Shown one piece after another: positions 2,765 to 49,037 of a stretch of DNA of 64,000 bases. The notes beneath the pieces are model-generated. The model was not told the origin of the DNA, did not search any database, and saw only the letters and a program-made list of their open reading frames with translations. The stretch covers positions 1 through 64,000 of the forward strand of contig JAAILG010000925.1 in assembly GCA_012026655.1 (NCBI GenBank), read 5' to 3'. The stretch comes from Hydrolagus affinis. Its lineage: Eukaryota. The number at the start of each line of letters is the position of its first letter. The stretch's first letter is position 1. The translations under genes were made by a program, and so were the position numbers.

Positions 2765-5700
2765 CTGGTCAGGAGGAAAAGAAAGAAGTTATTAGGAGAC
2801 AGGTATTATTGGGACATCCTCACGACATTCCTCACCAATGTAAGACAAAAATTAATGCAATAAATTTGATATAGCACATATTTCTGGAGACGGGTATTTG
2901 AAAGGCACTCTGTAAATGTCATTTTGTTGTTGTTATGCTCCATTTGTAGTTTTGTAAGATTAAAAAAAAGGATTGAATTTTATATTTCAAACTCTCACAG
3001 GGTTTTAGGGTAATTATTGTCAACAACAGCTTGAATTTATATAGTGCCCTTCACATGGGGTAGCATCTTGGAGCGTTCAAATGTATTTGCTTTGTTGTGG
3101 AATTCTTAAATCTGCCTTTTTTTTGCTGGCGAACTTGCTTACGTACAAGATCAATGAAGCCTAAATCACCAATGGTGAGGAAGGAGAGAGAAGGGGGATA
3201 TTCCAATCACATTAGTCAGAGTTTCAGCTGGACTAACAAGGTTGTTGTAGTATTTCAGTTTACTTAGAAGAACAGTTTCTCAGCAATACAATTAGATTCT
3301 GAAAGGTCACCACCACTGTTGAACCTAATGTGTCTTATGTGAAGATGACAAGTGTTTGGGTAAGACTGCATCTCAGTATTACTAGGTGTCCACCATTGCC
3401 TGATCACTCCTCTGACAAACATGACACAAACTAGATCAGCACCAAACACATTGGTTTCAGTGATTCAATTCTATACTGAAAGGAGGCCTCGGGTTAATTC
3501 ACCTGTTATCTGTCAAAGCCTGTATCTAACACTATGGAACGACCTTTTGCAGGTGAATCACAGTCAAATTACTAAGAACAAGAAAGAGCGCAACAACCAT
3601 TGAGTGGGAGATCTCTAATGATCCGACAGACTTGTGGATTGCATTACCAGAAACCGAATCGGAACAAACGTTATTGCACTTTGAAAGGCGTTTGTGAAGT
3701 TTCACCATTTATAGTAGGCCACCAGTGTCTAAGAGATCCCCCTTTCTCACACTATTAATATTAGCTTGCATTAAACCATAGGTAGCTTAGAATAAATCAT
3801 GAGAAGTTCCCATGGTACAATTTACCACTGCTTTTACTGAATTAGAACTAAAGAGCTCAGTCCACCCACTGTTAGCTAAGACCATTCTGCTGTGAAACTT
3901 TATTGTTGCAAAGATGTGGAAAATGCTTAAAATTCAGTCTTCATTTGAAAGCTAGTTTTCAGCAGTTCTTAAAGCAGATCCAGCTTCCAAATTAAATCTA
4001 TGAATTTTCCAGAACTATGTGTTATATAAAATTTATTACATTAATTTTTTCTATGTTGGTGAGGAATGTGTAACACTATTACACAGTTATATTTTAGACA
4101 TTATGTTATTTAGATGTGTTATTTAAATTTTAAAAAGCTTAGTTTGTGATGCTCAGGTCAAAAAAAGTTAATAATATGATAATCCATGCATTTGATATAA
4201 TGCCTTATCACATCGTCAAAATATCTTAATACACTGAAAACTTGGATTTTCTGTGTGAATATGGCTGCCAAATTTATTTGGGAGCTTATTGCTGAGCACA
4301 CCAGGAGAAACTCCCCTCTCTTTTCAAGTAGTGCCACTGAATCATTCGCATCCATCTGAACAGGTAGATGTGACCTCAGTTTAACATCTTATCCGAAGGA
4401 CAACACTACCGACATCGCAGTGCCCCCCCACCCATTAGAGTGTCAGTACAGACTTCGGCTTACCTGACATTCATGTGGTTTTTCCCCAGTATGAACCAGA
4501 AAGTGCTTCTGTAGGTGTGCGAGCTGTGTAAAGCCTTTATTGCAGGTCTGACACTTGAAGGGTCTTTCCCCACTGTGTACCCTCAGGTGAACCTATGAGA
4601 AAATTAACAATTATTACAACACTAACAAATGGATCAAATTCCACTAGTCTTTTATTAAAACCAATTTTAAAACCAGTTGGTACTAAGATTGCACACAATT
4701 GTGGAAAACTATTCAACTCAGTCTTAAAATAGGAAGCCATTCGCTGCAGTTGTTGAAAAGAACCGGCTTCTGAATTAAGACTGAATTTTTCAGTACTTCA
4801 AATATTCTTAAATTTTACATGTTAAGACTCGGTGTAATTTTGAGCCCATTAGAGTTCAGTTTAGATACAATGCTAATTTTGTTAATGGAATTCATAGATC
4901 CCCATAGATGCTTCCAGTGTAAAAAATGATGTAATCGTTAAGTTCAATTATGAAGCGCGATATTAAATGTGTGTAATAGCTATGAGGGGAATTTACAAAA
5001 CTTGCTTTCTGTGACTTTCTCTACACAGAAATTTATGTTTTGTTCCTTACTAAAAGCTTCAAAATGAATCTTCAGCGTCTTTCACGTCAGGAGGACGTCA
5101 GGGACGTCCTCCTGACGTGAAAGGCGCTAAACAAGTGTAATTTTTTTTGTTTTGTTTTGTTGTTACTCCCCATCCCTTTCCAGTTCTCTTCTCTCATTGA
5201 CCTCCTACTGTAAGTAGATTCCACAAACCCTGATTTCTAACCTGTAAACCCACTGTGGTCTCTCTTCCCATATGAATTCTGACAATGTAGTCTAATACAC
5301 CCTCATCACTCAAAGGTTTCCCAACAAGTTTTCAGAATGAGAAGAATACTATATTTAGCATTTGCCGAGTTATACCTTGACAATTATTAACTGGCAAAAG
5401 GGGGAAGGGGTAAATAATGATAAAAATAGGTACCAATCCTTAAGACACTAAGCATGCATTTCACAGTAGGGCTTCTAGTTGCAATCAGGAGCGAAGGATC
5501 TCTGGCTAATTTTATTCCCCACTACAATCCCAAGCAGTGAACCCTGAGACCAATTAAAAAGTTCCATACTTTTATGCTTCTGAAATTATTTAAACCCCCT
5601 TCAAGCGCTGAAGGGGGCGGTGGGGAGGGGGGGAACGCAGCAGCAGCTTGAAATTTCAGGGCAACTATCTAGTAGTACCCAAACCACCCTCTGGGGTCCT

Positions 5701-8700
5701 CAAGCCTCCGCTCTCAACAACCTGCACCTAATAGTTCTAGGATTAGATGTGCAGGGTGCATTCATTTGGGGGTGGGGGAGGTGGAGGGGCAGGCAGGGGT
5801 GGACAAAAGAGAATACACACAGTCTGTGACAAACAGAGGGGACATTTCCATATACTTGGAAGTCTCAGTAGTTTAATTTGGATCCTCTTAAAGTTAGTGA
5901 TGTGTTTGAGTGCACGTCAGACACCATTCTGAACAAAATAATGACCGTGTTGGAAAAACTAAAAGTTACCTTGAGGTTCGACAATTGTCCAAAGGTCTTG
6001 AAGCAAATGTTGCACTCGTATTTGATCTTCCCATTCTGCTTCTTTAAGGGGTAAGGAAGTGTCTTGTAACCGGTGAGATTTCTCTTTGGCTTGCTCAGGT
6101 TACCAGCTTCTTCAATACTATTGACCAGCCCTGCTGAGGTAGGTTTGGGTTGCATTAAATGTTCAGAATATGATGCAGCTGTGCCGGCCGTCGGAGACGA
6201 CCCGTTGGCAGGGCTGGAAGTCCTGTCCTTCAGACTGGCCGCAGAGCCTATGATGGAGAAGGCACTGTTGGACGCTGGAATGCGAAAGTCTCTCGGCTGC
6301 TCAGGGAACAGCAGACTATGACCTCTCTCCAGGGGAAACTTGCTGGGCAGGACCATCTGACTGAATATGGGCTGGGGGATGTTCCCATTTCCGATGAGGC
6401 TGCTGTAAATTGGGTACATCCTGGGAAAGAGATTGAAGTTGTTCATGCCGTTTATACCACTGAGAGCACTGAAGCCATTGCTCACTGAGTAATGAGGTAA
6501 GAAGAACCTGGAGTACTGGGCATTAACTGAACCATAGGGTTGTAAGAGAGCTGGAGACAGCTGGCTGGGAGAGGGATAGGCTGGGAGGCACCCCAATCCT
6601 TCTCGGTTGTAGGGTCCACTTAAGTAAGGGAAGCCTTCTTTATGTTCCTGAGATGAAGGAGTTGGAGGGGAAACAAGAGGTTTGGGACTGCTGTACGGAG
6701 TTGAACTTTTCAAGCTTTGCTCTGGGCTGCTTCTAGCTGACAAGCTGGGGGTGACTGAGGACCGGATGGGGGAATGTAACTGCTTGATGTAACTGTGCCT
6801 CTCGGTCCTGTAAGGATTGGTCTTCAAGTAGTCATCTGAAACGTGAGGTCTGAGCGGGTACACAACACGGGGGAGGAAGGTCCGTTCTGGGCTGTGTCTT
6901 TGCCTGAACTCAATTTCCTTTCTGGGAGCCATTTGGGGTTGAATTGTTTGCACTGAGTTCCTTTCCTTCATTTGCTTCTTCTCAAAGCTGCGTACCACGT
7001 TCCTGCTCTCAGCTCCCTTCACTTCAACGAAATCGGAGCCATAGTGCGTTTCCTTATGATTTTGTTCTGTTTAGAGGGGAGAACGAAGAGGAGGAGGAGG
7101 AGGAGGAAGAAACAAAATACCATCAGGAAATGAGTCACTTAAGTACACCATTGCAAAGCATTTCCTTCTCAGTTTCATTTCACGGAGAGAACAGCACTGC
7201 GAGTTTATTACAGGAATTGGGAGCTAGGCTGCACTCTGACTCAGCAAATTGTGTATTATCAGGAAGTGGTCGCGCTCTTTACCAACATTGCGTAATACAT
7301 ACACTTTCACTGTATTTGCCTCAGAATGCAGCACTCACTTGCGATAACCGTGTATACAGATTAGCGCGGCGACAATGAAACATGACAGGTAAACCTGTGC
7401 CAAACCACAAATGCCAGCTCGCTTTCTGGCCGAGCCACTTTCCAAAAGTAAAAAAAACACAAGAGAGACTACTGTATTGTTAGTACAGCCCTTGTTGTCA
7501 TTAATAGAGGTAACTAATACCTGGGAGGGATTGCAAGGCAGCAACCTAATCGGAGGGTGTCACATAACGCTGAACCTGCCAAACTCAACCAGTTGGGAAC
7601 TGACATCCAAGAGCTGAGCGAACTTGGGCTTCAAATTCACAGGGTAGTATTTTTTTGTTTATTTAATAATAAAACAAATTCTGTCAAGTTTATGTCAAAA
7701 CACACACACATCCACAAGTTTTAGGTTCATTTTTGCTTTTATCGGCCTAAATTTTGTAATCATAATTACTACAGATTATGAAGGTCTATGAAACTATGTT
7801 AAATTCTAATGGATTATTTCCCCCCGGCTGTGAGATAGTAACATGATAGCTGATAATTATAATACTTTTGACTCAAAAATATTGGCCAAATTAGATTTGA
7901 ATAAATTAATTGATGAAGAACCTCAGTATGCTGTTTATCTGGATGATTTGCAGTTTGTGGAGGGAAGAGTTGGAAAAGTGACAAACAGGGCTTTGGCATA
8001 GTTGAGCCTGGTTGTAATGAAGGTATATGAGGGTTTCAGCGGCCTGAGAAGCGATGTAGTGGCGGAGTCGGGCAGTGTTGCGGAGGTGGGGGAAGGCAGA
8101 GCGGGTCATGGAACAGATGTGAGGGAGAAAGAACAGTTGAGGGTTGAACAAGACGCCCACGTTCCTGCCTGGTTTGGTGAGGGTGCATCCATGCTGGTGC
8201 TGTTAGTGTCTGAGGTGCGACTGCGCTGGCGCGAGACAATCAGGAGACTCATCTTGCAGTGTTAAGACCTCCTTGTGTACAGTGAGCATCCTCAGGCTAC
8301 TACAAAGGGACTGAACACAAGGAGAATGTGTCTAGATAAATGTTCTGGGATGCTATCCTGCATGAGGGGCGCAGTATAAACATTGGCATTGTCCTGATTA
8401 GATAACTAGGCCTTTACTGTACCATTGCCTTACTGATAATAAATGGAGTTTATTATCTCTGTGAGCTTGATTGTCTAGTGTCCGCCACCACTAGACTCAA
8501 TCTTTACAATCAACACTGCATGACCGATTTGACAAGAGTCTCTAACTATCTATACAAAACATTGTGCTGGAATAGCAATCGAACAATAGAAGGAGAAACG
8601 CAGCTGACAGAAGAACGCACCAGTCATCCATAACAACTATATTGTAGAGATGCCACTATTGGAGCTTCAAGTATAAACTTCTCTGTCACACACCCAGCAT

Positions 8701-11700
8701 CACAAAGTGCATTAGGCCTCCTTGAGTGTAGCCTGAGGCTGCGTACTCTACACAAGGAGTTCTTAACAAGGAATCTATAAACACAGCAAATGTTCACTCC
8801 ATGGTTCTTCACTAACTGTTTTACCTCACACACAGAAAACACACAAGAACATTTATTTCTGAGGTAAATAAAAACTGTAAAATAGGGTCCCAGGTTTCTG
8901 ATACATTTTAAAAAATTGTGTAAATGTGAATCCGTTCTGTACAATCCTTAGTTTTACTTACATCAATGTCGAGGCTGTCACAGTCACCTGTGGCACTAAA
9001 AAAAAAGGCTTGTGTCCTATCCCGACTGCCATTTAACTTGACATCCTGGAGCTGTCAAACAAAGTGCTCCTTAGAAGCCAAGACTGAGTGTGCTTGGATT
9101 TCAGGCCTCAGAGCTGCTGAACTATAGTCATCGAGGGTTTTGTGCATTGGCACGGTTAAACAAACAAGAGTGAGTGTATGCTGTAGGCAAGGTGCTGATA
9201 GCAAAGGCTGATAGCAGGATTTGGCTTCCTTGAGCCACGAGATGAAAATAAATATGAGGTTATCAGGGAGATATCAATCTCTCAACTGGGGCTTGGCAGG
9301 CAGGAAGTTCAAGTAGTCACTGGTGAATTCTTTCACAGTAATAGTACCAAAGGAAAAAAAAACAAGCAATGAACCCCTCATTGGCCGGGCTGAAGGTTGG
9401 GAAGGGGTGACAATTAGCATTGCTCGGGGGGTATGCAAGGCAGTACCATAGCATGCTGTTTGCCAGTTTGCCGACCTATTCATCTGAATTACCAATAGCT
9501 GACACGCAGCACTTCGAATGACTCTTTATTCTTAAAGGCACAGTGGGTTGCTTTCGAATACAGACAAGCCATGCTGGTGAAAATATTAATACGCTCTTCC
9601 GTTCAATACATTGTTTCCTTTTGTTTTGAAAATATGAAAACTTTGAAAATCGAAACATATGTTGCAGCGTCAGATCAACCTACTGCCCTAGACAGTCAGA
9701 AGCCAAAATTCTGACGAGTGTTAGCCACAAATTGCAGTAGTAAATCGCTGTATCATGCAGTTTGGGAAATTTCTTAAATTCGGTCTTAATTGGAAAGCTG
9801 GTTTTTACACAATCCTTAAAACCAATTTTCAGATGGGAATACTGCTAGTGTAGTGAATAGGGGGGCACTATATAAATGCAAGTTGTTGTTGTAGATCTGC
9901 AGCCTACCGACCAGAAACTGTTACTGGTTCAAATCCCAGAAATTGTTACTGGTTCAACTTTGTGCTGAGTTTGCTGGTATCAGCCTGACCTGTTTGGGAG
10001 GCTTAATTAACCCTAATTTTTCCTGGACAAGAGAGGAAAAAAGCAGCCAGGGATTCTGCATCTCGTCCCTTTACAGGTTTTGCATGTGTGGGGGTGGGTC
10101 AGATTGGTGAAGCTAGACTCAGTTGTTATGATCTGTACCATTGAGTGAACTGAACTGCGCTCACACATGAACGATGGGGCATTTGGACAAGGTACCAGAC
10201 GGCAACCAGAGGAGCTGAAACAAAGCCAGAGGTGGTAGGCCAGAAGCACAGAGCCTAGTATCAGTAGAGTGAAAAATTAGATGTTTCTAAAATCTTAAAT
10301 TTTGAAAAATTGATTTAAGACAAATAACACAAGGAATTTACAGACTGAACAGGCTGGAGTCATAAAAGATCTGAAATTCCACCTGGTCTCAGCTTGTCAG
10401 ACCATTTTGTGTTAAGGTTCAAGATCACACATAATTGTGAAAAATCCTTAAATATAGTCTTAATTTGGATGCTGGTTTTACGCAACTCTTAAAAAAGAAA
10501 ACAGGTTCAGAATTTATATTAAAAGTTAGATTTCTGCACAATTCTGACTAAGTTTAAGACTTGATGGTCTGCCAGACTAAGAGTAGGTGGAATTTCAGGC
10601 CCACTGAGCAGATGATTAGTTTTACACCTTCCTCCTCACTTTTCTAACTATCAGAAATCCCCCTTTTTATTAAATGCTGCTTTGACCCCAACGTGCGATT
10701 TCTTTGACATTCTCTTCTCGTGGCCACTCATCCCCTTTTACAATTTCTGTTATTAAGAAACTCGGTTGCTCTCATTTGTGCACATAGGAGGAGGCAGAGG
10801 GTTTGCTTATGATTTGAGTGCAGAGAAAAACATAGTATGTCGAGGGTCGACCTCCTGTCATAAAATCCACAACCAGGTCTAAATAGTGTAGCTCCTGTAG
10901 GCGGGGAATGCCTCTGGTTCTCTCTTCAAATCACACTGAATCTGTTGTATCACATTTGATACTAAAATAAAGAATGTCGCGGTTTGCGACTGACTCCATG
11001 TTCTGTTCAGAGGAACACATCAAATAAAAGGCAACCTACATTCAAAACTAGAGTAGACCAGTCAACAAGCAAATACAGAATACAACAGCAATAAAAAAAA
11101 GATGAATAGGAAATGCAACCACAGTGATCCTGTTATCGGATATTAACTGTTATCGGGAGTTAACTGACTGGTTCACCCTTGAAGACAAAAGTTACCACAA
11201 AGTGGTTGCTAAAGCTCCATTCCTATTTTGCATCCCATTTTATTTGGTATTTTTGGCCCAGGAGAAAAGGAAATACATTCCATTGCTCTTCCGACGTGAA
11301 GCCAATGTACTTTGCCAACTGGATCACCCATGCATGCGTTTATCACTACGTGCTCCAAATTACTCCAACACACTCCTTGCCGGTCTCCCCAGCTCCACCA
11401 TTCAAAAGATCCAGCTCATTCAAAACTCTGCCACCCACATACGACCTGGACCAAACCACTGTACCCACATTTCTCCAGTTCCCACCGGGCTCCACATCAT
11501 CGAACAGATCAACTTTAAGATCCTCACACTTGTGTTCAAATCCACTCACTTCCTGGCACTTCCCTACCTCTCCGACCTATTCACTCCCCAATCAATCACC
11601 AGGCACCTCCGCTCGACCCTCGCATTCTCCACCCCACTGTTGGAGGTCACACTTTCAGCCACTACTCCCCCAAACTCTGGAACACTCTCACTCAATCCCT

Positions 11701-14700
11701 CCGCCTTACCCCCTCTTCGAAGTCCTGCCTGAAAACTTTCCTCTTTAACTATACTTACAGCCACCTACCCTCTTCCACTGGTTCGGAGTTAGGCTATGAG
11801 TCAGCACTCCAGCGCCTTGGAGGGTCCTCCCAACGTGAAAGGTGCTATACAAATGTAATTTTGTTGTTGTTGTTACCCGCTCGGAGACACTACCTTGCAT
11901 GGAGGGCATTATATAGTGCAAGTTGTTGCCGTTGATTAAAACTGCTCATGGGGAACGGGTTTAAAATGTAAAGCTATGTTTACGACAAGATGAGTAAATA
12001 TTGAATCTTTACAGCTAACCAGTGGGTCGTTATTCACTCTGCCAAATCATAACCGCTACGAAGCATGACTGGTAAAGTATTGGGCATTGCCAAGCTGTCA
12101 GCAAACCTCAACCATTCACTTCCAGTTACTGGTCAATACACTGTTCAGGCCAGCTGGAGAGATTGCCACCTGCTAGCAAGCATTCGTCAGTAAAACACTA
12201 AACGTCAGCCAACAGCAAGTTAGTTAGTTTGTAACCGCCAATTCCCACAGCTAAGGGTTTGGCTTAGATGCAGAAACCACCAAAAAGTGGATTTAGAGTA
12301 AATTCTCACCAGGCTGAGAATTGTTCGTTTAATGAATTTGCCCATGTCAAATACTATCAACCAGTATTCTACTCCAGGATGATTATCATCCCTTGACCAT
12401 AGGAACAGGAGTCTGACAAGTGCTTAACATTATCCCAGCTTCCAAAAGCATTATCTTAAACATCTTGATTGTTAAACGATTGAACACGGAGAAATCCTCA
12501 CAGCCCTCTCTGAGCAATCTGTCATTGGGCCCGGCTTTTAATCACAATATTTATGGAAGCAAAAAAAAACCTCTATAATAAAATGCTGACAGCTATAAAC
12601 TCAAAAAGCCACTGCCCTCTTGTTAAACATAGGGCAGATACTCTACAAATTGTAATTACTTTTCAGAGCTGTATAAAGATGAGCGATATGAAAGGTTCTG
12701 TGACTAAAGAGCCTCAATGTTTAGAGAAATGACAGTGCCATATATTTGTAAATGTAGTTTAGGATTGCTTGAAGGAGCCTAGAGATTGATATCTATGCTT
12801 GCCAGACGGGTAAATTAAAGAGGAATTCATCAAAAAGGTTTAGAGTAATGAGAATGGAGGTGTCACACATTTAAGATAATGTGACTATTATTATACATTC
12901 AACAGACCAGACCTCCACTAAAACTAAACTGAGTAGAAAAGGCACTGCATTAAGTTACCCAAATGCCCCTCATTAAAGAAATACTCAAAACTTTGTTAAT
13001 AAAGTCGTATCCTTAGCTCACTTTGATGGTTTTAAATCGTTGCACATTCAATGTTTTGCTTTAATGTATGATTTAAGTGCAATCATTTGCACTCCTTCCT
13101 TACCGTTTGCTTGGCCTTCTGAACGGTTGTGCCACTTTTCCGGTGGTTCCCCACTTCGAGGTAGGCTGAGACACTCTGTGTGGAGCAAAAAGACATTTAA
13201 AGTCAGTCTAGTTGAGATAGTGGGGTGGAATTAGTTAATCACAACTACTCACAGTGTGATAAGGGTGGGGTGGGGGGGAGAGGTAGGAGCACTGTCCAGC
13301 CCTCCCCACTTAAACCTCATTCATTTTCATGTTTCCCCAGAGGCCACAACAAGGTGAGCTCCACAATGGTAAGATGTTGGCCACAACCCTTGCGATTTAT
13401 CTCATACGGATACTGTAGCTATCACATGCCAGCTGATGGAACACAACAAAATTGGGGGATGGGATGAGAGAGGGAGTCAAGAGTCTGACATCCCCGCACT
13501 GAGGCCTTATGAGAACAGTTATGACAGAGTTCCTAAATTTCCACTTTTTAAAACCACAATAAATAACTTTCCAAATGTACCAGTACCAAACAATTTAACA
13601 CAGAGCTACTGAACTATTAGTTCTGGGAATAAGACCTTCTTAGAGTAATTCTTAGATGGCTTCCCACCACAGGTGCAGAAATTAGTGCATCCACTGCGTT
13701 ACATTTTGAGCATTGGTCTGGACTAGAAAAGGAGGAAAATTTGTCCAGGTCTCCCGCTTTTGATGCGATAACCTCTCTGCTGGAGATGTAAAAATCCTTC
13801 TGTTTGATAAAGCATCATTCACATGGGGAGGACATAAATGTTCCTATGATGTCTCCAAATGCTTTACAGGATTTATAGAAATGTAGTGACTGCATTTTAT
13901 AGACGAACAGAGAAGTCTACTTTGCGCACAGCAATATTCTACACACAGGCATGATGTAATGAAGAAAAGAACCCCAAAACCTTGAAACTGCAAAACACAT
14001 ATATAGATGTACAAACTATTCTTAAACACATTTCATTCTTTACTTAAGGTGCAGTGTTGAAATCTCACTCAAGCTCTACTGTAAAGGCCCTGGGCATCCC
14101 ATGTTGTATTCCCACCAGGATTATTCAGAGCTCTGCAGCTCATGTCCTCTCCTGCATCAATTTCCAGGAACTCATTATCTCCTTCCTCACCCAGCTTGAT
14201 TGACTCCCCATCCCCCAGAGGGTTGAGTTTAACAAACACTACTTGGTCTCTCTTTTAAAGATGTCCACATTCTTGCTTCTCCCTATCTCTGCGACCTATT
14301 AGTGTAATACCAACCTGCCTACACCCTCCACCACAGCAACGTCCTTTGCCCTGCCCATTCCACCATTGGAGGTTGAGTCTTCAGCCTTTCTGCCCCCACC
14401 CCCTGGAACTCCATTCCTAAAAGCCTCTGTCTTTCTCCCTCCCTTGCCTTGTTCAAGGCCCATCTCAAAATCTTCTTGTTCGACTGTGCTTTCAGCTATC
14501 GTCTCACTTCCGACCCCACTTTCCCTCCACCCCTCTCGATTCCAACCCCACCTGTTTGGATGCAAACCCTTGCGGTCCTGCGCCCTGGGATGTCCTTCTG
14601 ACTTGAAAGGAACTATATAACTACAATTTGTTGCTGTTGTGTTGCTGCCTCTTTTCAATCCAATTCAAACATTCCAATATAACTCTTTGAATACAACAAC

Positions 14701-17700
14701 AAAATTATATTTGTAGTGCGCCTATCACGTCAGGAGGAATAAGGAATGAAATGCATTTAGGAATGCCTCAAACTAAGACTTTTTCAGAATTAATAATCGT
14801 TTTGTTTTGGACTCAGATCACCTCAGCTTTTGATACACTTACTCAGCTTAATCATCATAAGATCACCTGAAGGCGGGTAACACAGTCTTCGGGCAAACTC
14901 GCTGCTATACCAAACCAGCAACTCGCTGTTAGCGGGGATTGGCTTCACTGTATAGAAGTAGATGTTCATTCCGTTCTGACAAGCAGCCAAACATTGCTCT
15001 TGCTTCGAACGGGCCGGGTTCACAAATCGCATCCAGTTACTCTTGTTTTCGTTAAATCCATCAATAAAGTGGTGGAACTCACCATCTGAATACACCTGCA
15101 ACAGATGTCAAAGGCAAACAAAAACTCAGTTTGTTTCCTCTAAAGAGATAAACAGTAGAGAGCGAAACAAATACAAACAAATAATATATGAAAAAAAGGA
15201 TTGTAATGGGCAAAAGTCACAAATGTGGATTTGTAATTTAATCCTATTAAAGATCATTTTAACAGTTACCTGCGTTTGCTCTGGAGCAAATCTTATATCA
15301 TTAACCTCCAACACAGAGCCTCTTAACCCCCCAAGGTAAGAACAACCAGCAACTACATACATCTGCTGCAGTTCTGATTGTACTTATAGGCACAGGCAAT
15401 GTGTTGAGTCACCCTAGCCTTGACGTCAAACTGCACAAGGCTACTCAAATTGAATCTTTGGCCTCCAGAAGTTGCACTTTCCTACTACCCCCACCCCAGG
15501 GCCACAGCTATACAAATCTTCCTGCCTTCAGTACTGGGCTGCTGTTGATAAAATTACTTGGAATCCTGAAGCGGATGGGAGGGACTTGTGCAGGGATCAC
15601 CTGCCGTTAGCGGGGGTGTACAGCTGTTTGAAGCTAGATCAAAAAGCTCTTTGCTCAATGACATGTTTGGCTTCTGTTGCAAGGCACCAATTACTTATTG
15701 CTTTGCTGCAGGGCCTCTAGCAGCTTTTCCAAAGCAGCAATAGAAATACTCAAGTGTCAGAAAAATATTGTTTTCAAAACTAAAAAATAGACTCTCTCTC
15801 ACACACACACACCACATAGAAGCACACGCAATCAAACACCTACTCATTCACTCATTCAAAATACACACTTCCTGTAAAAATCAAAGAGGAAAAATATGCA
15901 TTTGGTTTCTTCAGAATATTGTGGTCCAAAGTTGTGTGGTGAGTCTGATATGAGAAAATGGAACAGTAGAAAAGGTGAAATGTGGCCAGGGAGGTTTTCA
16001 GGTTCTGTTTAGTGTGAAACATTATTCTTTTTCTCTCTTGAAAAACTTCCAGGAACTGGTGACTCTGTCACTTCCATTACAAGACACTGTATGTGTGTGT
16101 GTGTGTATTTGAAATCTTGATAAGACTTCCAATGATTTTCCACAGTCTCATTTACTGTACAACCTAACTGAAACATAACTGAAAACACAAGATCCCATGA
16201 CATCAGCAAAACCCAAATTTAAATCATATTTCCATGCCATAATGTACACAGGAAGAAGAACAAAATACAAAGTAGCATTCACATCATCATGTTGTAGTTT
16301 TTCTGGTAATTAGTAAGATATTTTGCATCTTGGATCAGCCTGCACTGCAGTATAGTATTGCAGTTTGAGAATCCAGGCCAGATGTAAGCCCTAAATGACT
16401 AAATGTAGGAAGCAGAGACCATATTCCATCTAACATCAATTGAAAAAAACACTTTTAAAATCTAAGAATACATAGAATTGTGAAAATTCTTCATTTCAGT
16501 CCTAAATTTGAAATTGGTTTCTCTAAGAACAGCTAAAGAGCTTGCTTTCAAATTAAAAGTGGATTTCAGAATTTTTCACAATCATGCACTGTCTTAAATT
16601 TTAGGACAAATCGGTCTTGCAGGTGAAAGACTGGGTGGAATTGTCTGCAACAAGTTTTTAATGAGTTTTAAAAATGATTTCATTGAGGGGGATACCACAG
16701 TACTGTATTTCATCAATGGTTGTGATGGCTATGAATGAGTGTCCTCCACACGACACTTTTGACATCTCTTACACTTTGCAACCACACATTCTGGAGCTAT
16801 TAAGTTTAAAACAATTTAACCCCCATCTCTCTCCCCCCCCCTCCCCACACACACACACACAGACTTTAATTAAGGTCAAATATCTTAAGAAACCCATAAA
16901 AAGTTAGCATCATGCATGCTGAACACCCTTCCTGCCAAAGTACATCAACGCATTATGATACAAAATAATTTACATTTATACAGTTCCTTTCATATCAGAA
17001 GGATGTCCCAAAGTGCTGACCTGAGGCTGGGAGTCAAGGACAGTGGGAAAACTAAACAAAAATGCGACTGTAGAGGTTTTGCAATGCGCTTTGAAGGAAG
17101 CGAGAGAACTAGTCAGAAGGATTCAGGGGTGGAGTTTGAGAGGGTGGGGATAAAATAGCTGATAGCCAGCCGGCTATTTGCTGCCCTGCATGTAGGGTGC
17201 TATATGGTGGAGCTCGGTAGCTTAGTGGTTAGAGCTCTCGCCTTGCAAGTGTGAAACTTGTGTTCGAATCCAGGTAGATCAGGAAGAAAACCTTGGGCAA
17301 GTTTCCTTACTCCACACGCCTAATAATAATCCCTCCAAAACAATCCACAATAATAAAATTGTTCATTTCAATCCACGAGTGTTTGTGGGACACTGCAATT
17401 GGCTGCCATGTTTCACCCACAAATATACAGTCAATTCACTTTACAATATATTCTGTGAAGCGCTTTGAGACGTCGATAAGATGTGGAAAGCGCAATATCA
17501 ACTGCAAGGATTATTATTATTAGATAAATGCAAGCTGTTGTTGCCATTGGTTGCTTGGATAGGGTTAGTCTAAAAGGTGTTGTATATGTAGTGGGGGTGA
17601 CAAGGTGTTAGTTTAAATCACGTTTCCAAGTCAAAAGCTTGTAAAGTTTGATATTTGTACCCCAACTGAGACTGTGAGGAGCACTGCTCTTACTAAATCC

Positions 17701-20700
17701 ATCACCGCTTTGTCCCTGCCCTGGATCATTTCTCTGCCATCAGAGGCAAGTCACGACCATGGTACAAATGGGCTCTAAAATACTTACTTATGCCTCAAAC
17801 CCTGAACTAAAATGCACTTTCTTTTCACATTGACCTTTGCCGAGTCACCAGTGGTTAAAGAGGAGGAAATAAAACCCAGGATTTTGCATCAACTGTTTCT
17901 AATTAGTCCCCTGTCAACATGCAAATGTAACTTGCCTCTGAGCAGAACTAAACCATTTCCTATTCCATAAGAAGCATTATGTTCTGACATACAGGGCCAA
18001 GAATAGCCAAGATCAATTCATTACGAACAAGAAGCCCTCCCTCGAGATTCCCCACTCAATGTGGCACAGACAGTTACTCAGCTAATTTACACTCCCACTT
18101 TGCTACATATATGGTGTGTCACAGGAACTTTGCCGCTACTGATGTAAAACAGGAAGTGACAAACTTTTTCAGTAGTATTCATTTAGTGAATTAGCAATCG
18201 CACCAACACAATTTGTTTTTCTTTTCCCTTTCCTCCAATCTCCCCAAACTTACCCTCCAAAAGTATTTTCTGTTTGTGTTCTTCGGCACAGTGTCGTTAG
18301 TATAGATTTCACCGATGAGTGGTCCGAATCGAGTTCCTTTCGGGATGTACTCAATGCTCAGAACTCCCAGTACCTGAGGAGAGAGTGTCAGAAGGTGTGA
18401 TAGGGTTCAAACTGAATATAGCCAAATAAGAATGGCCCAGGTAGCAAGCCCATATGGGCCCCATATGGGCTTGCTACCTGGGGGAGAGGGACAGACGCTG
18501 CCAAATCATGTAAGCACCTGAGGAAATGTGACACTTGTTGCAAAATTAGTTTCCTAAATAACTTCCTCAAATGATCCATGATATAACAGCACTGTTCCAG
18601 GACCAGTCTATTGATTGTTATGGAAGCGTTTTATTTTAGAACTTCTCATTAGGCTAATTTTCCCGATGTAGATAAGATAATATTCAAATCCTCATCGCAC
18701 ATATTAATCACGCAATCCACAGCACACTTCCTCACAGCAAGTGAGTCAGCTGTAAATCCAACTGGCACTATTGTGCTCTGGGATTTTGACTGCTGCCCGT
18801 TGCCACCTTTTCACAGTCGCTAAATACCACAATAGCAACACAATGCCTTATCCTGGAGATACTTGGTCACCCTGTGTCAAAACAACTTTCCAGCCCATCA
18901 ACATTTATTATACAACATCTGCCAACCTTCAATTTGCCTGCCCGCCACTCATATTCTTAGAATGGTCATTCAAGACCCTTACTCGAGTATTACGCAAAGT
19001 GAGCTTCTTCCATTGGCAGCTTTCAACTAGCTCCCAGGTGAAAGAAAGCCCAGCAGATTTGGCTGGCACCGAGTTGGGAGTGCAAGTGTCAGTGTAGAAT
19101 AGGAATTATCTGGTCAGGCACTCACTCGGCACTGAACAGCTGTTGCTGCCGAGTCACAGCACTGTGGTTGATGTTCATGGCGATTTGTTTAAAACCTAAT
19201 TTTGGAGAGCAAGACAGTTAGAATACCCAGACAGAGTGCTTGCACACAAACTAAAAGGAAACAAACTAAATAAATTCCTAGACAATTCCTGGATTAGTAC
19301 CTATACTCAGGAAGAAGAGGCGTTTGATTCCCTGCCGCACTCGCTGCAAATCCATTCATGAGTCACAAGTCAGGAAGCCAAGTATTTATCCAGGCATAAA
19401 ACTGCAGTCGTAATTAATATAATTTACCACCTCTCAGAAAACTAAGGAACAGTTTACATGCACGTACACATGTACACACACGCGCACACACCTCTATTTG
19501 TTGTGCTAGTTTGGGGCCTGGATTTCACATTTGGGTCTCTCTGACTTCCAAGAGCCAGGGGTAAGAATTTTGTTTGCTCAGGGTCATTCAGTGTAGCATT
19601 GTGATCTCATGTGCAGGACACACCTGCACTTCTCCCACTTGCGTTTCTAATCCCCCTTCAAATTTTCAAATTACTTTGCACTTTCGTTTCAAAAATAAAA
19701 AGTCTTGACATCTCTCGGGCCTTTTCTTACTTCTGTAAATAGCTAGCCGGTTGAAGTTTTACTTCCATGTTGTGGGTTTTCACTCATACATCTGTGCATC
19801 ATGATGCAGCACATCCCTATTGCCAACGAGGCTGGCTTAAACCACACAAAACGCTTAGTCAACCTTTCCTTCTCACAGATCAGTGGTGCCATTTAACCCC
19901 CTTATCCACTGAGTTATTTTTGTTCTGTCGCCAGTAATGAGTATTGTCAAAAAGGCACTTCACAATAGCTGTTTTTACTTTTGAGTATACTCATTTGTTT
20001 ACAGTTCTCACACCTGTATGCACAAGAGATAGTTATGAGAAAGAGCGATTCTAAAAATCACCTCGAGAACAGAAGCTGAAACCAACTTGTTTGACGGGTT
20101 ACTAAAAGGACAATCATAATTTAGAGAGAGCACTTGTCAAAAGCCTATCAGTGGCTCTGGACTGTACAATCTATTAGCTTGCTGCAACCTCACCACCTTG
20201 TACAGGTCTGGGAGAGCAGTTAGCCCTCTGCCACCTCCCTCTGCCCTCAGCAGGGAACAAGTAGTGTTTTCTCCAGGGCTGGGGTTAAGATGCCAAGTGT
20301 CTTCATAAGGTCAGTGTGTGTCCACCACTCAGTCTTTCCAGTAGCCACCAGCACCAACCCAGCAGCGAGAACACTGGCTGATATTTCCCTTCCCTGGCCC
20401 AAGAGACATTAGGGTCTGACCTACTTGTCTAATGACTAAAAACAACAATCTTTCCACCACGTCTCTTTAATGGGATTTCCCATTTTAAACCCAGAGAAAC
20501 AATTGCTTGTTTTTAAAGAAGACAGCCAAAAATAACCTTAGTTGAAGTCATCAATAGTATCCTCTTGTCCTGCATGGGTTAAACCAGTTAATAGAGCAGT
20601 ACAGCACCCAAGACCATTTGGCTAATCAACCCTATATAAACCAGGAATGGGTGGAATGGCTGGCCTCCTATTGTGCTGAAATTCCTATGATGCTCTGAGT

Positions 20701-23700: not shown

Positions 23701-25426
23701 CTACTGTTTATCTCAACATCCCACATCCAGGCAGGGAAAGGGGGGGATGGTACAACCAGGGCTATTACTCTGTACTGCTGGTTAGTGCCCCCCAATCCCG
23801 AAAATGTGTATGGATGTCAGGTGAACGCAGCTAGGGATCATCTGTGCTCACAAACAGAACCTTGTGGGTGGGGGAAGAGGAAGAGAGAATGTTTTTTTTA
23901 AAAATCTTGAACTAATAGTGAGTAAACCTAAAACAGCTGAGAGAAGAACAAAGTAAAATTGTGAAAATCAGCTGGATAACGTCGGGAACAAGCCTGCACG
24001 CTATGTTTCTAGAGTCTAATGAAGAAGTCATAAAGTTTCAGTCATACCCACAGACAGACATTCACTCACTTCAGGAGCGATCTCGACTATTCAGAGTGAA
24101 AATCTGTGAAACTGATAAAGAAACTGGTCAAAGACGACCCCGCAGCTCTGACCTGCCGCTCTGTCTGATAAATGACCACAGTGTCATTTGTCTCCTCTGT
24201 CTCTACATTTCCTGTGAATGCTGAAAGGGCAGCACAGCCGCTTCTAAACTGTGGGAATAGGATGCTATTCAGCCTCTGTGACCAACGAGGAAAGGTGCCA
24301 TTAATACTAGTCATTAAGGTTCATATCTGTGTTAATCATGTGCCTTTCAATACACACACACACATCCATGGACAACAAAAACACATGCACGCTTGTTCAA
24401 CAAAAACACTTCACCCACTCTTATACAAATTAATGAGCCTTTCAGATCAAATATTTAAACCAAAATCTAACTATCACTCACAGCCTTGGGACTTCCTTTC
24501 CAAAACACGTAATTTTCTGCATTTGTCACTCTGGTTTTTATTGTACTTTGTAGCCAATGTATTGCTGAAATGTTTCTAAGTTCCCTCAGTTATGATGTAG
24601 ATACACTATATATAACTCTCGCTGCCTGCCAGATTAATGAGACAAAGCACTCACTGGCCACCCACAGACTCCTGGAGAGCACAACTTCTTTTTAACAAAA
24701 TAAATTGGACCACGTTAACATAGAAAGCCAGTAGAAGTGTGTCACTTTAGACTATTGTAAAATTGAAAGAGAGGAAGCTGGTGGCGTCTTTAAACAATAC
24801 ATTTCAAATCTGCTCTGAGTTAAAGTGTGTTCAGATTCTGCCACTCAGATTTACAGCAACATTTAAATACGGAGTATTTGGTCCAGTTCATTCATTCCTT
24901 CATTCATTCAATAAAGAAAGAACCATTCATCTGCAGCATTTTCAGAGATTGAGAAGTCGGAGAGACTATCTTTTCCCTCTCTATTCCTTAGCTAGGCTAA
25001 TGTCTAGAGTTGAATAGTGCCCAGTATGGGTGCCTATATTTAACGTTGCGCATCTGTCTATAAATAGTCATAGCAATTAACAGCAATAAGCTATAAAGCA
25101 CTTTGAGACATCGACATTATAGGTGCTAAATTAATTTTAAGTGTTATTATTTTATAATTATTTATAATAAGCTCAAAAAGTTTAACGCTCCCACCTCCCC
25201 CGGATCTATTGCTGCCTTAGAGGATCTGGATAGAGACATAACTCACCTCATTTGAATCGCGTGAGTACTTGAACTTCAAGTTCCGAGGCAGAGTTGCCTG
25301 TGCGTGCACAAGGCTAGTGTCGGCGCTTGGGTCCCATGACTGGTCGTTCACAATATATGTACAACTTTCCTCAAATTCGGACTCGGTCCACTGAGTCATA
25401 TCCACGTCCTCCACATCCATTTTCAT
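2189..25426 (-). CDS. prdm1: PR domain zinc finger protein 1 (Blimp-1) family gene; spliced CDS complement(join(2189..2764,4464..4592,5970..7066,14843..15095,18254..18373,25247..25426)), 784 aa
   Basis: Exon lengths 180+120+253+1097+129+576=2355 nt (785 codons including TGA), all GT-AG and phase-consistent. Translation gives [20 protein letters not shown], a PR/SET domain, a Pro/Ser-rich region, five C2H2 fingers and C-terminal [13 protein letters not shown], matching vertebrate PRDM1 architecture. Orthologue versus paralogue status is unresolved (see findings). Confidence 0.95.
4170..4455 (-). mobile_element. Old Deu-domain SINE (SacSINE1/AmnSINE1-like) fragment in intron 6
   Basis: Minus strand shows ...CTTCGGATAAGATGTTAAACTGAGG...CAGATGGATGCGAATGATTCAGTGGCACTACTTGAAAAGAGAGGGGAGTTTCTCCTGGTG, homologous to 45050-45275; family name from recalled consensus. 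Confidence 0.65.
4464..4592 (-). CDS. prdm1: prdm1 exon 6 (end of finger 1, finger 2, start of finger 3), 129 nt
   Basis: Read manually as [43 protein letters not shown]; acceptor tctcatAG, donor CAG|GTAAGC. Confidence 0.96.
4631..4847. mobile_element. Copy of the palindromic MITE family in intron 5
   Basis: Shares AAATTCCAC, AATTGTGGAAAA, CAGTCTTAA and TTAAGACT blocks; terminus AATTTTGAGCCC. Confidence 0.6.
5074..5128. repeat. 26-bp inverted repeat (1 mismatch, 3-nt loop) built from an L2 3' tail
   Basis: AGCGTCTTTCACGTCAGGAGGACGTC-AGG-GACGTCCTCCTGACGTGAAAGGCGCT, followed by a T/GTTTT tail to about 5165. Confidence 0.85.
5970..7066 (-). CDS. prdm1: prdm1 exon 5 (Pro/Ser-rich region and first half of zinc finger 1), 1097 nt
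   Basis: Overlaps ORF 5865..7022: [55 protein letters not shown]; acceptor after a (CCT)n pyrimidine tract ...ctctaaacAG (phase 1), donor AAG|GTAACT. Confidence 0.95.
7120..7410. promoter_or_regulatory. Candidate intronic enhancer/silencer at the 3' end of intron 4
   Basis: AICE2 GAAATGAGTCA 7127-7137, ISRE-like AGTTTCATTTC 7171-7181, MARE TGACTCAGCA 7237-7246, ETS CAGGAAGT 7260-7267, C/EBP-type ATTGCGTAAT 7287-7296, Blimp-1 consensus CAGTGAAAGTG (minus) 7302-7312, RUNX AACCACA 7403-7409. Confidence 0.6.
7995..8260 (-). mobile_element. L2-clade LINE reverse-transcriptase ORF fragment
   Basis: ORF 7906..8160: [44 protein letters not shown], resembling the L2 ORF2 C-terminal motif LGV.FD..L.F..HI.......F.HLRNI.RLR. 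Confidence 0.8.
9950..10210 (+). mobile_element. Ancient AmnSINE2-like SINE fragment (best of about ten copies in the window)
   Basis: TGTGCTGAGTTTGCTGGTATCAGCC...GGAAAAAAGCAGCCAGGG...GCTCACACATGAACGATGG...GGACAAGGTACC; the same blocks recur near 23590, 32690, 41540, 48630, 55100 (+) and 5465, 20320, 38770, 40860, 51600, 59090 (-). Family name from memory. Confidence 0.5.
10371..10602. mobile_element. Palindromic MITE (about 230 bp) in intron 4
   Basis: Left arm CTGAAATTCCACCTGGTCTCAGCTTGTCAGACCAT versus reverse complement of right arm CTGAAATTCCACCTACTCTTAGTCTGGCAGACCAT; right terminus reads GGGCCTGAAATT. Confidence 0.75.
11345..11875 (+). mobile_element. L2 LINE 3' fragment
   Basis: [25 protein letters not shown]...[14 protein letters not shown]...LPYLSDL in ORF 11124..11732, then tail GAAAGGTGCTATACAAATG(TTG)n. 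Confidence 0.85.
14085..14645 (+). mobile_element. L2 LINE 3' fragment
   Basis: Degenerate homolog of 11345-11875 (CCTTCAGC/TGGAACTCC blocks, TTG tail). Confidence 0.7.
14843..15095 (-). CDS. prdm1: prdm1 exon 4 (PR/SET domain core), 253 nt
   Basis: [63 protein letters not shown]...; acceptor ttgcAG, phase-1 donor A|GTAAGT. Confidence 0.96.
16415..16645. mobile_element. Copy of the palindromic MITE family in intron 3
   Basis: AATTGTGAAAATTC ... GAATTTTTCACAAT internal inverted blocks and GGTGGAATT end; partial copies also at about 3850-4015 and 9700-9840. Confidence 0.6.
17210..17521 (+). mobile_element. tRNA-derived SINE, full length, in intron 3
   Basis: Same head, body and tail as 59412-59730, ending in (TTA)n; appears to interrupt an older L2 tail. 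Confidence 0.88.
18254..18373 (-). CDS. prdm1: prdm1 exon 3 (PR/SET domain, N-terminal part), 120 nt
   Basis: Absent from the ORF track; read manually as [40 protein letters not shown]; acceptor ctcctcAG, donor AGG|GTAAGT. Confidence 0.96.
18436..18482. repeat. Perfect 23-bp inverted repeat with 1-nt spacer; probable minimal CCCAG-ended MITE
   Basis: CCCAGGTAGCAAGCCCATATGGG-C-CCCATATGGGCTTGCTACCTGGG, flanked by GG on both sides. Confidence 0.85.
20697..21099 (+). mobile_element. tRNA-derived SINE interrupted by about 100 bp of G-rich sequence
   Basis: Head 20697-20800; body and tail about 20900-21099 with (TTA)n. Confidence 0.8.
25247..25426 (-). CDS. prdm1: prdm1 first coding exon (human exon 2 equivalent); full exon 25501-25247 including 75 nt of 5'UTR
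   Basis: Acceptor ttttcttcttctctAG before 25501; ATG at 25426 (GGG ATG AAA ATG G); encodes [33 protein letters not shown]...[19 protein letters not shown]; donor GAG|GTGAGT at 25246. Confidence 0.93.
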
Positions 25427-26444
25427 CCCCGCGGCCTCTCTCCTCTCCACTCTCCCGTCAAGCTTCAGACACTAGAAACCAATTGGCTTTTCCCCCGGTG
25501 CCTAGAGAAGAAGAAAATCTTTGAAAATCTTGATTGTCCACATTCTGTGGTTTCCTTTAGAGACAGTGTGTGACTAATAGAGCAGACTGAGGCGCTTTTT
25601 ACTATGCAGCAAATTGCTCAAAGTGCTTGAGTAATCGACTGAGTAGTCTAACATGCATGTTTAGTCGATTCAGATATGGAATCTAGTCTAGAACAATTGA
25701 AACAATAGATAACATGGGGAGTTTTTTTGGGGGGTAGGGGGGAGGATGGGTCAGTGGGTGGGCGGGTGAAAGAAACAATACTTCAAATATAACATAAGTA
25801 CATGTCCGTTTCCTTCTACCATTCTGCCTCCTCTCCCTCTCCTCCCAACCACATTTGAAAAGGTTGCAGTCTGTATCACAGGAAGCCTTCCGCATGGCTC
25901 CAAGTGCACTTCAGGTCATGGCCGGGCATCCAGTACCCTGTGGAAAAGCTGCTTCAGAAAGTGACACAAACAACCAGAGGAAGAGGAAGGAGCTGTTGTC
26001 TGCGTTGTTGAGCTAAATCTGGAACAGCGTGCGGCAGCAGCGGAACTCGCTGGCCTTTCCAAATGGGGAAGCCTGACATTTTCCCACCGATTCCTGAGAC
26101 ACAAACAATATTCAAAACAAATGGCCCTGACGTCTCCTCATCCTTTGGAGCAGACTGAATGTCAAGTCCAACAGCATCACCACTGACTGCACCTCAAAAC
26201 ATTCCCAGAGCACAACAATGAACCCACCAGTATCCTGTACATTGAAAAATGCAAAACATCATACCAGATAATAAATAGGAGATCTATTCCTATGAGACGT
26301 CATCAAATCAGACACACAAAATAACATGTGTGTCTTTACTTTTATAAGATAGACTATTTTTTAAGATTGTATTTCTTACTAATTTTCCAAAAGAAACAAG
26401 CACTACGTTATCACAAAAATCACAGCAATTTAAATGTCAAATAC

Positions 26445-42100: not shown

Positions 42101-45049
42101 TGGTCGGAAATCTCTTTTTTTTTAAAAAACGAGCTGTATTACATCAAGTAAGAAGACAAGCATTTTGAACTTGAGATGAATTTGTTCTGAGTATGGGACA
42201 TTTGAAGAACCCGAGGTTGATACGTTTAAGAACGAGAAATGTTCAACAGGAATCTGGAAACTAGTCACTTCTGTCCTGTGGCATTTGAGGTCTTGTGCAA
42301 TTTGAGTTTTGTGGCTGTTCTCGTACATTGGGCAATGGAAATCTAAGATCAGACCCAGAGTTCAGAGGAATCTGTGCTAAATGCGTCATTTTAAATCTAC
42401 AGGTATTCTTCACCAGAATTGAAAGTGATAAAAAAAAATTCAGAAGAGTCTCTTCTATTGCACAAGAGCCCAATTCAATACCAATCCAACCATTTTATAT
42501 TAAGTCAAAAGCAAGGATTATTATAAGTCGGGTCAGACAACTTTAGCCTTGTTCAGAAGCTGCTTATTGACAAGTATCCAATTCATGCACGTTTTAAAAA
42601 GGTTGTGCTGTTTCTAGCCATACGTTTGCTCAAAGGCTGGTAATACAGAGACCTTCATTGACACACAAGATTTGCTTTGACCCCAAGAATCCCAAGAACC
42701 ACACGGACTCCCAAGCTTTCAATGTTCACCCCCTTGCGCCTCTCTCCGTGACACAATTTACATTTATATGATGCCTTTCACATTGTGAGGATGTATCAAA
42801 GTGGGCAAGCAACGTAATAGGTTGGAAAGTCTATCACTTTGGAAATCAAGTAGCTCCCCTGGATTACTGATTACAAAAGACATCTCATCACGCCCAGCTC
42901 ATGTGAACACTTAAGGACTTAAGGAAATGATTCACCAAACTCAAAACCTTCTGACTTTATAACCCAGGTTCACGTATCGAATAACCTTTAAATCTCAGCT
43001 TTATCATACCACTCTTCTTCAGCAATGTTAGCAGACTTAAAATAGCAGCACAACCAGCTCAATCTTATCAACCATTGATAAAGTCTCATAATGGTCTCTG
43101 AGCAGCTCACCATCAATACTTTTTGTTAATGCTGTAAAATAGGAATTGAATTTGGACAAATATTCTTACAACCTCCCCCAATCCACCCCCCCACCCCAAC
43201 ATACACACACACACTCAGTGCAATAAACTCAATACCCCAGACACAAACCGCTTATTCCACAGGTGCTGATTCCAGACGTTTTGGGGCAGCTTATAAGACA
43301 ACAGAATGGCAGCCATCCACAGAAAAGTCACAGCCTTTGTTAAACATGGACAATGGAAACTGCCCAAAGGCATGCCATCCTCCCCACGGCATTAAGGTTT
43401 CACAGTCTGGGTTAATGCGATTTGTAATCCTGGAGTAGTTAAGAGTTTTTGAAACACACATATTCACATGCACACACACCGCAAACTAACACAGTGGCAT
43501 CATTGCTTCAAAACAACACTACTCTGGGAGGACTGCAATTGAAGCACACATTTATTGAGGGAGGTGGAGGGGGGGTAAAAGCGTGTGTTGCAAGCTCAAA
43601 AAATAGAGTCAATGTAGGCCATGCCTTAAAGTGAAAGACTAAATAAAACATACACAACTATGGATGGGCTTTTGTTCACATTTTGGTTTTTAAAAAAAAA
43701 ATAAGTTCCTTTTCCCCCAATGAACTTATCCCTCTCCCATCCAAGCCCATCCTTCTTGGCTATTTTTGCTGCTTTCTTTTTCCAGGGGCAAGAAAGGAAC
43801 GTTATTCCAAATATTTAAAGCAGTCGCTGGAATCTCAAGCACCTGTTAGAACAACAGCCAGAAAAATAAAGGAAGCGACAGCTGACTGGTTCAGGTCACA
43901 TCCCTGAAACCCACAAGACACTTCCAAAAGCCACCTACCACAATTAGGTAAACATGGTTTCTTGCTCTGGCAGCTAGTGAAAGCTTTGTCCGTACATCCG
44001 CAATGTTGATTTCTGGCCCGGCTTGAACGAGCAGCCTAGTTTCCCCCTCTCCACCTCAAACAGTGGTCGAAGCTCATCCTATGCAAACACTGTGTGTGTC
44101 TGAGCACAGGTACATCTTAAACAGTGTTAACCATTAACCAAAAGCATGGCAATTGAATCACGTTTATCTTGTACATTTGCTAGCACATTCTCAATTTTTC
44201 ATTGATATCCCTGGATCAATATTCTTTCTTTGGGTGGAAGAAAGAGAGGGGTTTGGAGGGGGAGTAAGCAGGGTGAAGGAAAAAGCTCAAAACATTTCCA
44301 ATGAACAGTTTGAAATATATCATCAAAGCATTGAAGCAAAGAAAAATCTGATTTATCTCTGGATAACTGAATTCCTGAGGTACATGCAAAGAACCTTCAT
44401 ACAGAGACTACATGGAATCTATCAGCAGCCAGATCGCTTTACATTTTCTGCTCTGTGGTATCACAAGCGCACAATTCCAACAAGCAGGTTTGATTTTCAC
44501 AAGGTGTTTACCAAAGTAAGGCTTTGAAGATCTCACTGCAGAAGAGAGACTTCAGAATAAGTCCCTACTTTATTGCCACTCTATCAGCTGAACCAATACA
44601 GGCTATTTAAATCATTTACAAAGTGGATCTGCTTAGAAACCATGCAAAAAAAAGCCAACTCCACAAAAGTGCTGAACTTTATCTAGTTTTGCAACTTTAA
44701 AAAATGTCTCATTACCTCGCAATTGTAAATATTTTACAGCAAGAGATTTTATGGCAGTAAGCGCGGCTCCAATGCAGTTTATTTTATATGGTTACTAACT
44801 GAACATTTATCCCAATTAAAACAAGATACTCCACAGGCTCACACTTTTTTTTACTATTTCTGAAAAGAGGTCCATTCTGCATATAAATCAACATTAATAC
44901 AATCAACATTTTAACGTGGCATTTTTATGTAATTTAGTCTTTATAGAATTGGTAAGCCTTTCCTTACTGCCAATCTGCAGTCTCTTTCTCTGCGACCCAT
45001 TGACATGCACATAAATGTGCATCCACGCACGCACACACACCATGCTTCG

Positions 45050-48937: not shown

Positions 48938-49037
48938 NNNNNNNNNNNNNNNNNNNNNNNNNNNNNNNNNNNNNNNNNNNNNNNNNNNNNNNNNNNNNNN
49001 NNNNNNNNNNNNNNNNNNNNNNNNNNNNNNNNNNNNN
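48938..49037. other. Assembly gap (100 N)
   Basis: Run of exactly 100 n, a typical placeholder of unknown size. Confidence 0.99.

Follow-up and report, generated by a model that had tools for sequence, protein, structure and literature searches.

In the mouse, IRF4 occupies an element of the Prdm1 gene known as CNS9, placed between exons 5 and 6 in an older numbering, both in effector Treg cells and as plasma cells differentiate (PMC5520377). One IRF4 peak, +14,048 from the transcription start site, is annotated to intron 4 of 6 (PMC11099079). A MARE in intron 5 (CNS+14), to which c-Maf binds in Th1 cells, has been tied to repression by Bcl6 and Bach2 (PMC4144744). The letters of the 19-nt CNS9 ISRE, a probe for IRF4 homodimers, are printed in PMC7913761. 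In the structure given there, the half-site contacted by the second IRF4, two bases past the first, departs from the consensus, and an upstream GA is called essential for dimerisation. Reverse-complemented, the forward ChIP primer for the intron-5 MARE (supplement of PMC4144744) equals the 3' part of this probe; therefore, CNS9, CNS+14 and the MARE amplicon refer to a single place in the mouse gene. BACH2 is described as binding these genes at sites apart from the IRF4 regions (PMC11099079). The underlying work on CNS9 is that of Sciammas 2006 and Ochiai 2013 (as cited in PMC7913761 and PMC11099079), and that on the intron-5 MARE, with Bach2-MafK and Bcl6, is that of Ochiai 2008 (as cited in PMC4144744).

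The mouse MARE is juxtaposed with a Bcl6 response element. From exon order and general knowledge, we take the large exon of mouse Prdm1 to be exon 5 of 7, and CNS9 presumably lies roughly 2 kb from it, not 0.1 kb.

The genes of the plasma-cell network are already known in sharks. In nurse shark cell clusters, Irf4 is up-regulated in plasmablasts and plasma cells and Prdm1 in plasma cells (PMC10529500); the available text of that study makes no mention of Bach2. For teleosts, a 2026 review treats the use of the mammalian BCL6/BACH2/IRF4 module as unresolved (PMC13670022). Were chimaera and mouse to share a cis-element, the wiring, and not only the genes, would date to the split between cartilaginous and bony vertebrates. 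In the following, we describe a cluster of transcription-factor motifs in an intron of a chimaera PRDM1 gene, which we studied within a stretch of 64 kb (the window). While the mouse element is well known, its chimaera counterpart is probably new: our search, thin on subscription journals, found no cartilaginous-fish counterpart of CNS9 in print, and neither 'intron' nor 'binding site' occurs in the available text of a paper on prdm1 evolution (PMC7662092). The block may, however, already be visible in the conservation tracks of genome browsers.

The PRDM1 gene of the window

A first-pass annotation had assigned the locus to PRDM1 of a cartilaginous fish, and protein comparison agrees on both counts. 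The PR-domain exon matches the PR domain of PRDM1 (E 3e-41), and the large exon has its best protein match in PRDM1 of Callorhinchus milii, at 92% identity; among the matches listed, it is 62–70% identical to eight sharks and rays and 51–61% identical to bony vertebrates. Given this best match, the source of the DNA is a holocephalan. The gene lies on the minus strand, with exons at 25247-25501, 18254-18373, 14843-15095, 13104-13175, 5970-7066 and 4464-4592 and a last one from 2764; no first exon was located in the 64-kb window. Three of the exons frame the element:

14843..15095, minus strand: PR-domain exon (mammalian exon 4), with an alternative donor after 14867
13104..13175, minus strand: 72-nt coding cassette exon of phase 1-1, which splits mammalian intron 4 in two
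5970..7066, minus strand: large exon (exon 5 of the seven-exon mammalian model), with its 3' splice site at 7067-7068

Of 120 proteins, 116 could be scored for the cassette peptide, which is present in eight of nine cartilaginous-fish PRDM1 proteins and absent from all 107 others; the sole cartilaginous-fish exception is the Narcine PRDM1 model, which skips the exon. This distribution may reflect either a gain in cartilaginous fishes or a loss in bony vertebrates. Because of this 72-nt exon, mammalian intron 4 is divided here and, by the gene model of the window, the motif element lies in the downstream part (7067-13103), at its 3' end. The earlier placement in intron 4 is therefore right in naming the intron before the large exon, but needs amending for cartilaginous fishes, in which the extra exon splits that intron.

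Two further observations concern the gene itself. The end of the PR-domain exon (14843-14867, minus strand) holds two 5' splice donors, 24 nt apart, of which the upstream one is used by three database proteins and the downstream one by five, ahead of the cassette exon. Furthermore, a 15-codon stretch at 44471-44515 (minus strand) matches the N-terminal extension of the Heterodontus PRDM1 model (E 5e-4) and is possibly a distant upstream exon or a conserved element.

Motif words in the element

Seven motif words had been read from the DNA between 7120 and 7410, and a string check found every one of them exactly in place, 60–340 bp upstream of the large exon. They had also been said to lie in non-repetitive DNA, and contig depth bears this out: it is 2–28 over 7105-7508 in the three public runs that cover this stretch, as expected of single-copy DNA, versus hundreds to over 100,000 on a high-copy interspersed repeat at 7913-8215. 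With one word added to the earlier list and one re-registered, the element comprises:

7127..7137, plus strand: AICE2 word, an IRF half-site abutting AP-1 with 0-nt spacing; candidate BATF/JUN-IRF4 site
7163..7181, minus strand: extended ISRE like the mouse Prdm1 CNS9 probe, with its core pair at 7167-7176 and a 2-nt spacer
7208..7216, minus strand: STAT (GAS)/Bcl6-like word between ISRE and MARE, absent from the earlier list
7237..7250, minus strand: CNC/Bach-small Maf MARE, a motif word with an AT-rich flank on the Maf side
7260..7267, plus strand: ETS core word, nine copies in the window; not part of an EICE
7287..7296, no strand assigned: near-palindromic C/EBP word, one copy in 64 kb
7302..7312, minus strand: Blimp-1-type word of the class without IRF overlap, lacking an upstream AA doublet; candidate self-repression site
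7403..7409, plus strand: RUNX word AACCACA, 17 copies in the window

The AICE2 word, of which 64 kb hold a single copy (0.12 expected), immediately precedes the polypyrimidine tract. AICEs are IRF/AP-1 composites with 0- or 4-nt spacing (PMC11717359), and at 7127-7137 the IRF half-site is directly joined to the AP-1 site, an exact 0-nt composite as in the AICE2 of BATF-IRF4 targets. It may be lineage-specific; the available literature yielded no AICE2 in mouse CNS9.

The ISRE had been described with a 1-nt spacer at 7171-7181, which is the wrong register: the mouse-like pair is 7167-7176 on the minus strand, with a 2-nt spacer, and the word at 7171-7181, which occurs once in 64 kb, is the upstream extension of the ISRE and not its core. 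By the flank rules that separate BLIMP1-type from IRF-type words (PMC2938208, PMC13307996), the flanks of 7163-7181 are of the IRF4-biased type, and 7302-7312 has the core and the G flanks of a BLIMP1-biased word. Together, these flanks fit an IRF4 on-site plus a separate Blimp-1 feedback site.

The Blimp-1 word occurs once in 64 kb (0.45 expected) and resembles, in its core and G flanks, the BLIMP1 sites without IRF overlap of PMC2938208, with the difference that it lies inside PRDM1 itself. As for the Blimp-1 self-site proposed earlier, a BLIMP1-biased word is indeed present, but the literature search found no report of self-repression through this intron.

The STAT/Bcl6-like word has seven copies in 64 kb, counted with a pattern that was picked after 7208-7216 had been sighted, and is a putative Bcl6 site. 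The MARE lies about 55 bp from the ISRE, and its core is that of a Bach2-bound probe from Slc48a1 (PMC11699347); its 10-nt word occurs twice in 64 kb, with the AT-rich flank only at 7237-7250. Further MARE-like words are found at 11797 (adjoining repeat-derived DNA), 23606 and 53651, which makes four in the window versus 0.38 expected.

No EICE, i.e. an ETS core two bases from an IRF half-site, was matched in 7068-7600, and mouse cns9 serves as a PU.1-negative control region (PMC11099079). With nine and 17 copies, respectively, the ETS and RUNX words are weak evidence when taken alone, and the RUNX word may be there by chance. For C/EBP, ETS and RUNX, the available literature holds no support from the mouse. 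These three, the AICE2 and Blimp-1 self-repression are motif matches and should be regarded as candidates. The AICE2, Blimp-1 and STAT/Bcl6 words are worth seeking in mouse and human CNS9.

A motif cluster above the shuffled background

To score clustering, we used 23 lymphoid consensus motifs from general knowledge, weighted by rarity, in 300-bp windows. The stretch 7121-7421 scores 15.2, and the next best 300-bp window in 64 kb 6.4. In 60 dinucleotide shuffles of the whole window, the best score averaged 5.7, with a maximum of 7.6, and none reached 15.2; likewise, none of 2,000 local shuffles did. Motif density is therefore above the shuffled background (15.2 vs at most 7.6) for a panel that included the claimed motifs. 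The panel was not blind: besides those motifs, it holds an ISRE variant that was added after the mouse site was known (worth 1.9 points), and therefore the significance of the score is overstated by an undefined amount. The element is also less depleted in CpG (observed/expected 0.70), a level that nine of 202 blocks reach.

The sceptical reading is that of a chance set of short words, with any constraint coming from the nearby 3' splice site. In its favour, the motifs were chosen after the sequence had been read and scored with this panel, ETS and RUNX words are common, and the AICE2 overlaps branch-point-like words about 55–65 nt from the acceptor. It is at odds with a score of 15.2 against a shuffle maximum of 7.6, with the position of most sites at 100–250 nt from the acceptor, and with the finding that a functional site of the mouse independently matches at a place named beforehand (see below), and we hold it to be very unlikely. 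The motif cluster is real, and it is very probably regulatory. As a fragment of 200–300 bp with named sites, it is well suited to reporter and EMSA work.

Weaker groups of motifs, with scores of 4.7–6.4 that fall inside the shuffle range, are found at 18041-18341 (NF-kB, ETS, EICE and ISRE words), 18721-19021 (ETS, AP-1, STAT and C/EBP words), 15861-16161 (ETS, RUNX and Bcl6-STAT words) and 50741-51041 (STAT-Bcl6, ETS, RUNX and MEF2 words).

Comparison with mouse CNS9

The 19-nt mouse probe was slid along both strands of the window, i.e. over about 128,000 places. On the gene strand, 7163-7181 agrees with it in 14 of 19 letters and in 11 of 12 in the core; 14/19 is reached at three of these places, among which 7163-7181 ranks first on local score and falls inside the interval named in advance. 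The core pair reads GAAA-CT-GAGA in the chimaera and GAAA-CC-GAGA in the mouse, and the upstream AA, the consensus half-site and the upstream GA are all kept. Among the 15 ISRE-like sites of the window, it agrees best with the probe, against which the others score 8–13. Shuffling 7120-7410 gave 14/19 in 61 of 20,000 cases on the same strand and in 138 of 20,000 on either strand. For the whole 7.8-kb intron, 87 of 1,000 shuffles attained it, and the strength of the match is therefore its place inside the motif cluster.

The two elements share the gene, the intron and an ISRE with a non-consensus second half-site. They differ in that the chimaera element carries an additional IRF half-site upstream and departs from the mouse 3' of the core, where the mouse letters disagree (CNS+14 forward primer, 12/22); also, the chimaera ISRE, itself a candidate site, lies about 95 bp from the acceptor. 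Likewise, the same intron of the chimaera holds a full Bach/Maf MARE, the proposed counterpart of the intron-5 MARE, accompanied by a STAT/Bcl6-like word. Set on the chimaera ISRE, the mouse MARE primer is directed at higher window coordinates, and it is there that the chimaera MARE is found. With respect to the mouse MARE and Bcl6 site, this likeness is one of position only.

Beyond the ISRE, the mouse primers add little. Within 7068-7500, none of the four cns9 and CNS+14 primers exceeds the three control primers, which reach 12–13 matches, save for the CNS+14 forward primer, which attains 15/22 in the wrong orientation; the CNS+14 reverse and cns9 reverse primers find at most 12 matches. We discarded two other placements as evidence, both within the control range: the cns9 forward primer over the chimaera MARE (13/20) and the CNS+14 reverse primer at 9017-9038 (14/22). 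The anchor for orthology is one 19-nt stretch, and any ISRE partly matches the probe. Also counting against orthology are the statement that BACH2 and IRF4 occupy different sites in these genes and the lack of PU.1 binding at mouse cns9 (PMC11099079), as well as the greater distance of mouse CNS9 from the large exon.

Judging from these letters, the shared intron, the cluster score and the expression of Irf4 and Prdm1 in nurse shark plasma cells, we lean towards regarding the element as the holocephalan orthologue of mouse Prdm1 CNS9/CNS+14/intron-5 MARE. One alternative is that a functional IRF4/Bach2 element was built independently in holocephalans, by turnover or convergence, in which case it would work like CNS9 and the module would be undated. 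That one short anchor alone matches the mouse, that the four other mouse primers do not exceed controls, and that the position in the intron probably differs from that of mouse CNS9 would all suit independent assembly. Yet the match reaches past the half-sites and includes the unusual second one, and the direction from ISRE to MARE agrees with the mouse amplicon. We consider independent assembly improbable.

Divergence among relatives

We compared contigs of four of the 22 listed public runs over 6600-9600. Organism C is identical over 7156-7688, and organism B, over 7239-7537, shows three substitutions (7367, 7371, 7498) and a 3-nt insertion behind 7312, none of them in a motif; contigs of organism E cover no part of the element. 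Organism D differs over 7039-7753 (715 bp) by 61 substitutions and 34 gap letters, or about 8.7%, a count that is not split by motif. Its exon differs at 32 of 414 positions (7.7%), two other intron pieces at 28 of 184 (15%) and 28 of 194 (14%), and a third, 8963-9360, at 23 of 398 (5.8%), below the exon. As this third piece is even less diverged, constraint at the element is not specific, and the relatives' divergence lends weak support at best to its conservation. The piece 8963-9360, which contains a second ETS word at 9301, is possibly a second conserved element.

Proposed working and age

By analogy with the mouse, the element is best read as a lymphocyte element that IRF4 would switch on and Bach2 switch off, with use in T cells as well. 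The earlier label of a 'plasma-cell-type' switch is too narrow, because IRF4 in effector Treg cells and c-Maf in Th1 cells also occupy the mouse region; the accompanying claim, that mouse Prdm1 is under IRF4 (CNS9) and Bach2/Maf (MARE) control in the equivalent intron, is borne out by the literature (PMC5520377, PMC11099079, PMC4144744).

In resting and activated lymphocytes, Bach2 and a small Maf would sit on the MARE at 7237-7250 and keep PRDM1 low, perhaps assisted by Bcl6 on 7208-7216. The AICE2 at 7127-7137 could let BATF-IRF4 prime the element while IRF4 is low. As Bach2 falls and IRF4 accumulates, an IRF4 homodimer would occupy the low-affinity ISRE at 7163-7181 and turn PRDM1 on, which would lead to plasma-cell and effector T-cell differentiation, and Blimp-1 on 7302-7312 may then feed back on PRDM1. 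We infer all of these binding events in the fish, including the roles of Bcl6, AICE2 and self-repression, by analogy.

The same words would also allow another use. C/EBP, ETS, AP-1, GAS-like and CNC-MARE words, all of which are present in the element, suit myeloid and stress programmes. The element could accordingly be an inducible innate, myeloid or epithelial enhancer, in which AP-1, C/EBP, ETS, an NRF2/Bach1-type MARE and IRF1/STAT drive PRDM1 after infection or stress and Blimp-1 dampens the response. In line with this, nurse shark myeloid clusters express Irf4, Irf8 and Batf3 (PMC10529500), and Blimp-1 was, according to the available literature, isolated as a post-induction repressor of IFN-beta. 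However, the ISRE shares with the mouse IRF4 site a second half-site that departs from the consensus, and its flanks are IRF4-biased, the MARE is without the 5' purine of an NRF2-type word, and the AICE2 indicates BATF-IRF4/8. An innate enhancer seems unlikely to us.

As to its age, a date in the jawed-vertebrate ancestor, as proposed by the first-pass annotation, is plausible for the IRF4 site; for the MARE the case is positional, and for the remaining words it is unproven. A bolder proposal is that the entire bistable logic by which lymphocytes differentiate terminally, comprising BATF-IRF4 priming while IRF4 is low, IRF4-homodimer commitment once it is high, Bach2-Maf/Bcl6 repression and Blimp-1 self-limitation, was already hard-wired in less than 200 bp (7127-7312) of PRDM1 in the last common jawed-vertebrate ancestor. 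The chimaera would then retain the compact ancestral form, and mouse CNS9 and the intron MARE would be its descendants. We regard this as speculative and on the doubtful side; if true, that logic predates true germinal centres and class switching.

Other matches and features of the window

Searches beyond PRDM1 returned matches that we attribute to chance. Probing JGI metagenomes with mouse CNS9 gave nine loci, which are chance microbial matches: they show no PRDM1 (tblastn E at least 2.9), no similarity to the element (blastn E at least 1.4) and no MARE. A MARE-gap-ISRE pattern in GTDB gave eight prokaryote loci, taken as chance from their titles.

An open frame of 156 codons at 6908-7378 (plus strand) runs antisense to the large exon and crosses the element. 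We rejected it as a gene, as the 87-aa part searched has no meaningful protein relatives; its three weak matches (E 4e-6 to 8e-4) are to a cadherin-repeat, a TPR and an unannotated protein.

An Rfam scan of the window found only two tRNA-like SINE heads. A tRNA-headed SINE family is present at 410-481 and 52260-52330, with copies near 17211, 20698 and 59415. Lastly, the window contains an assembly gap of 100 N at 48938-49037.
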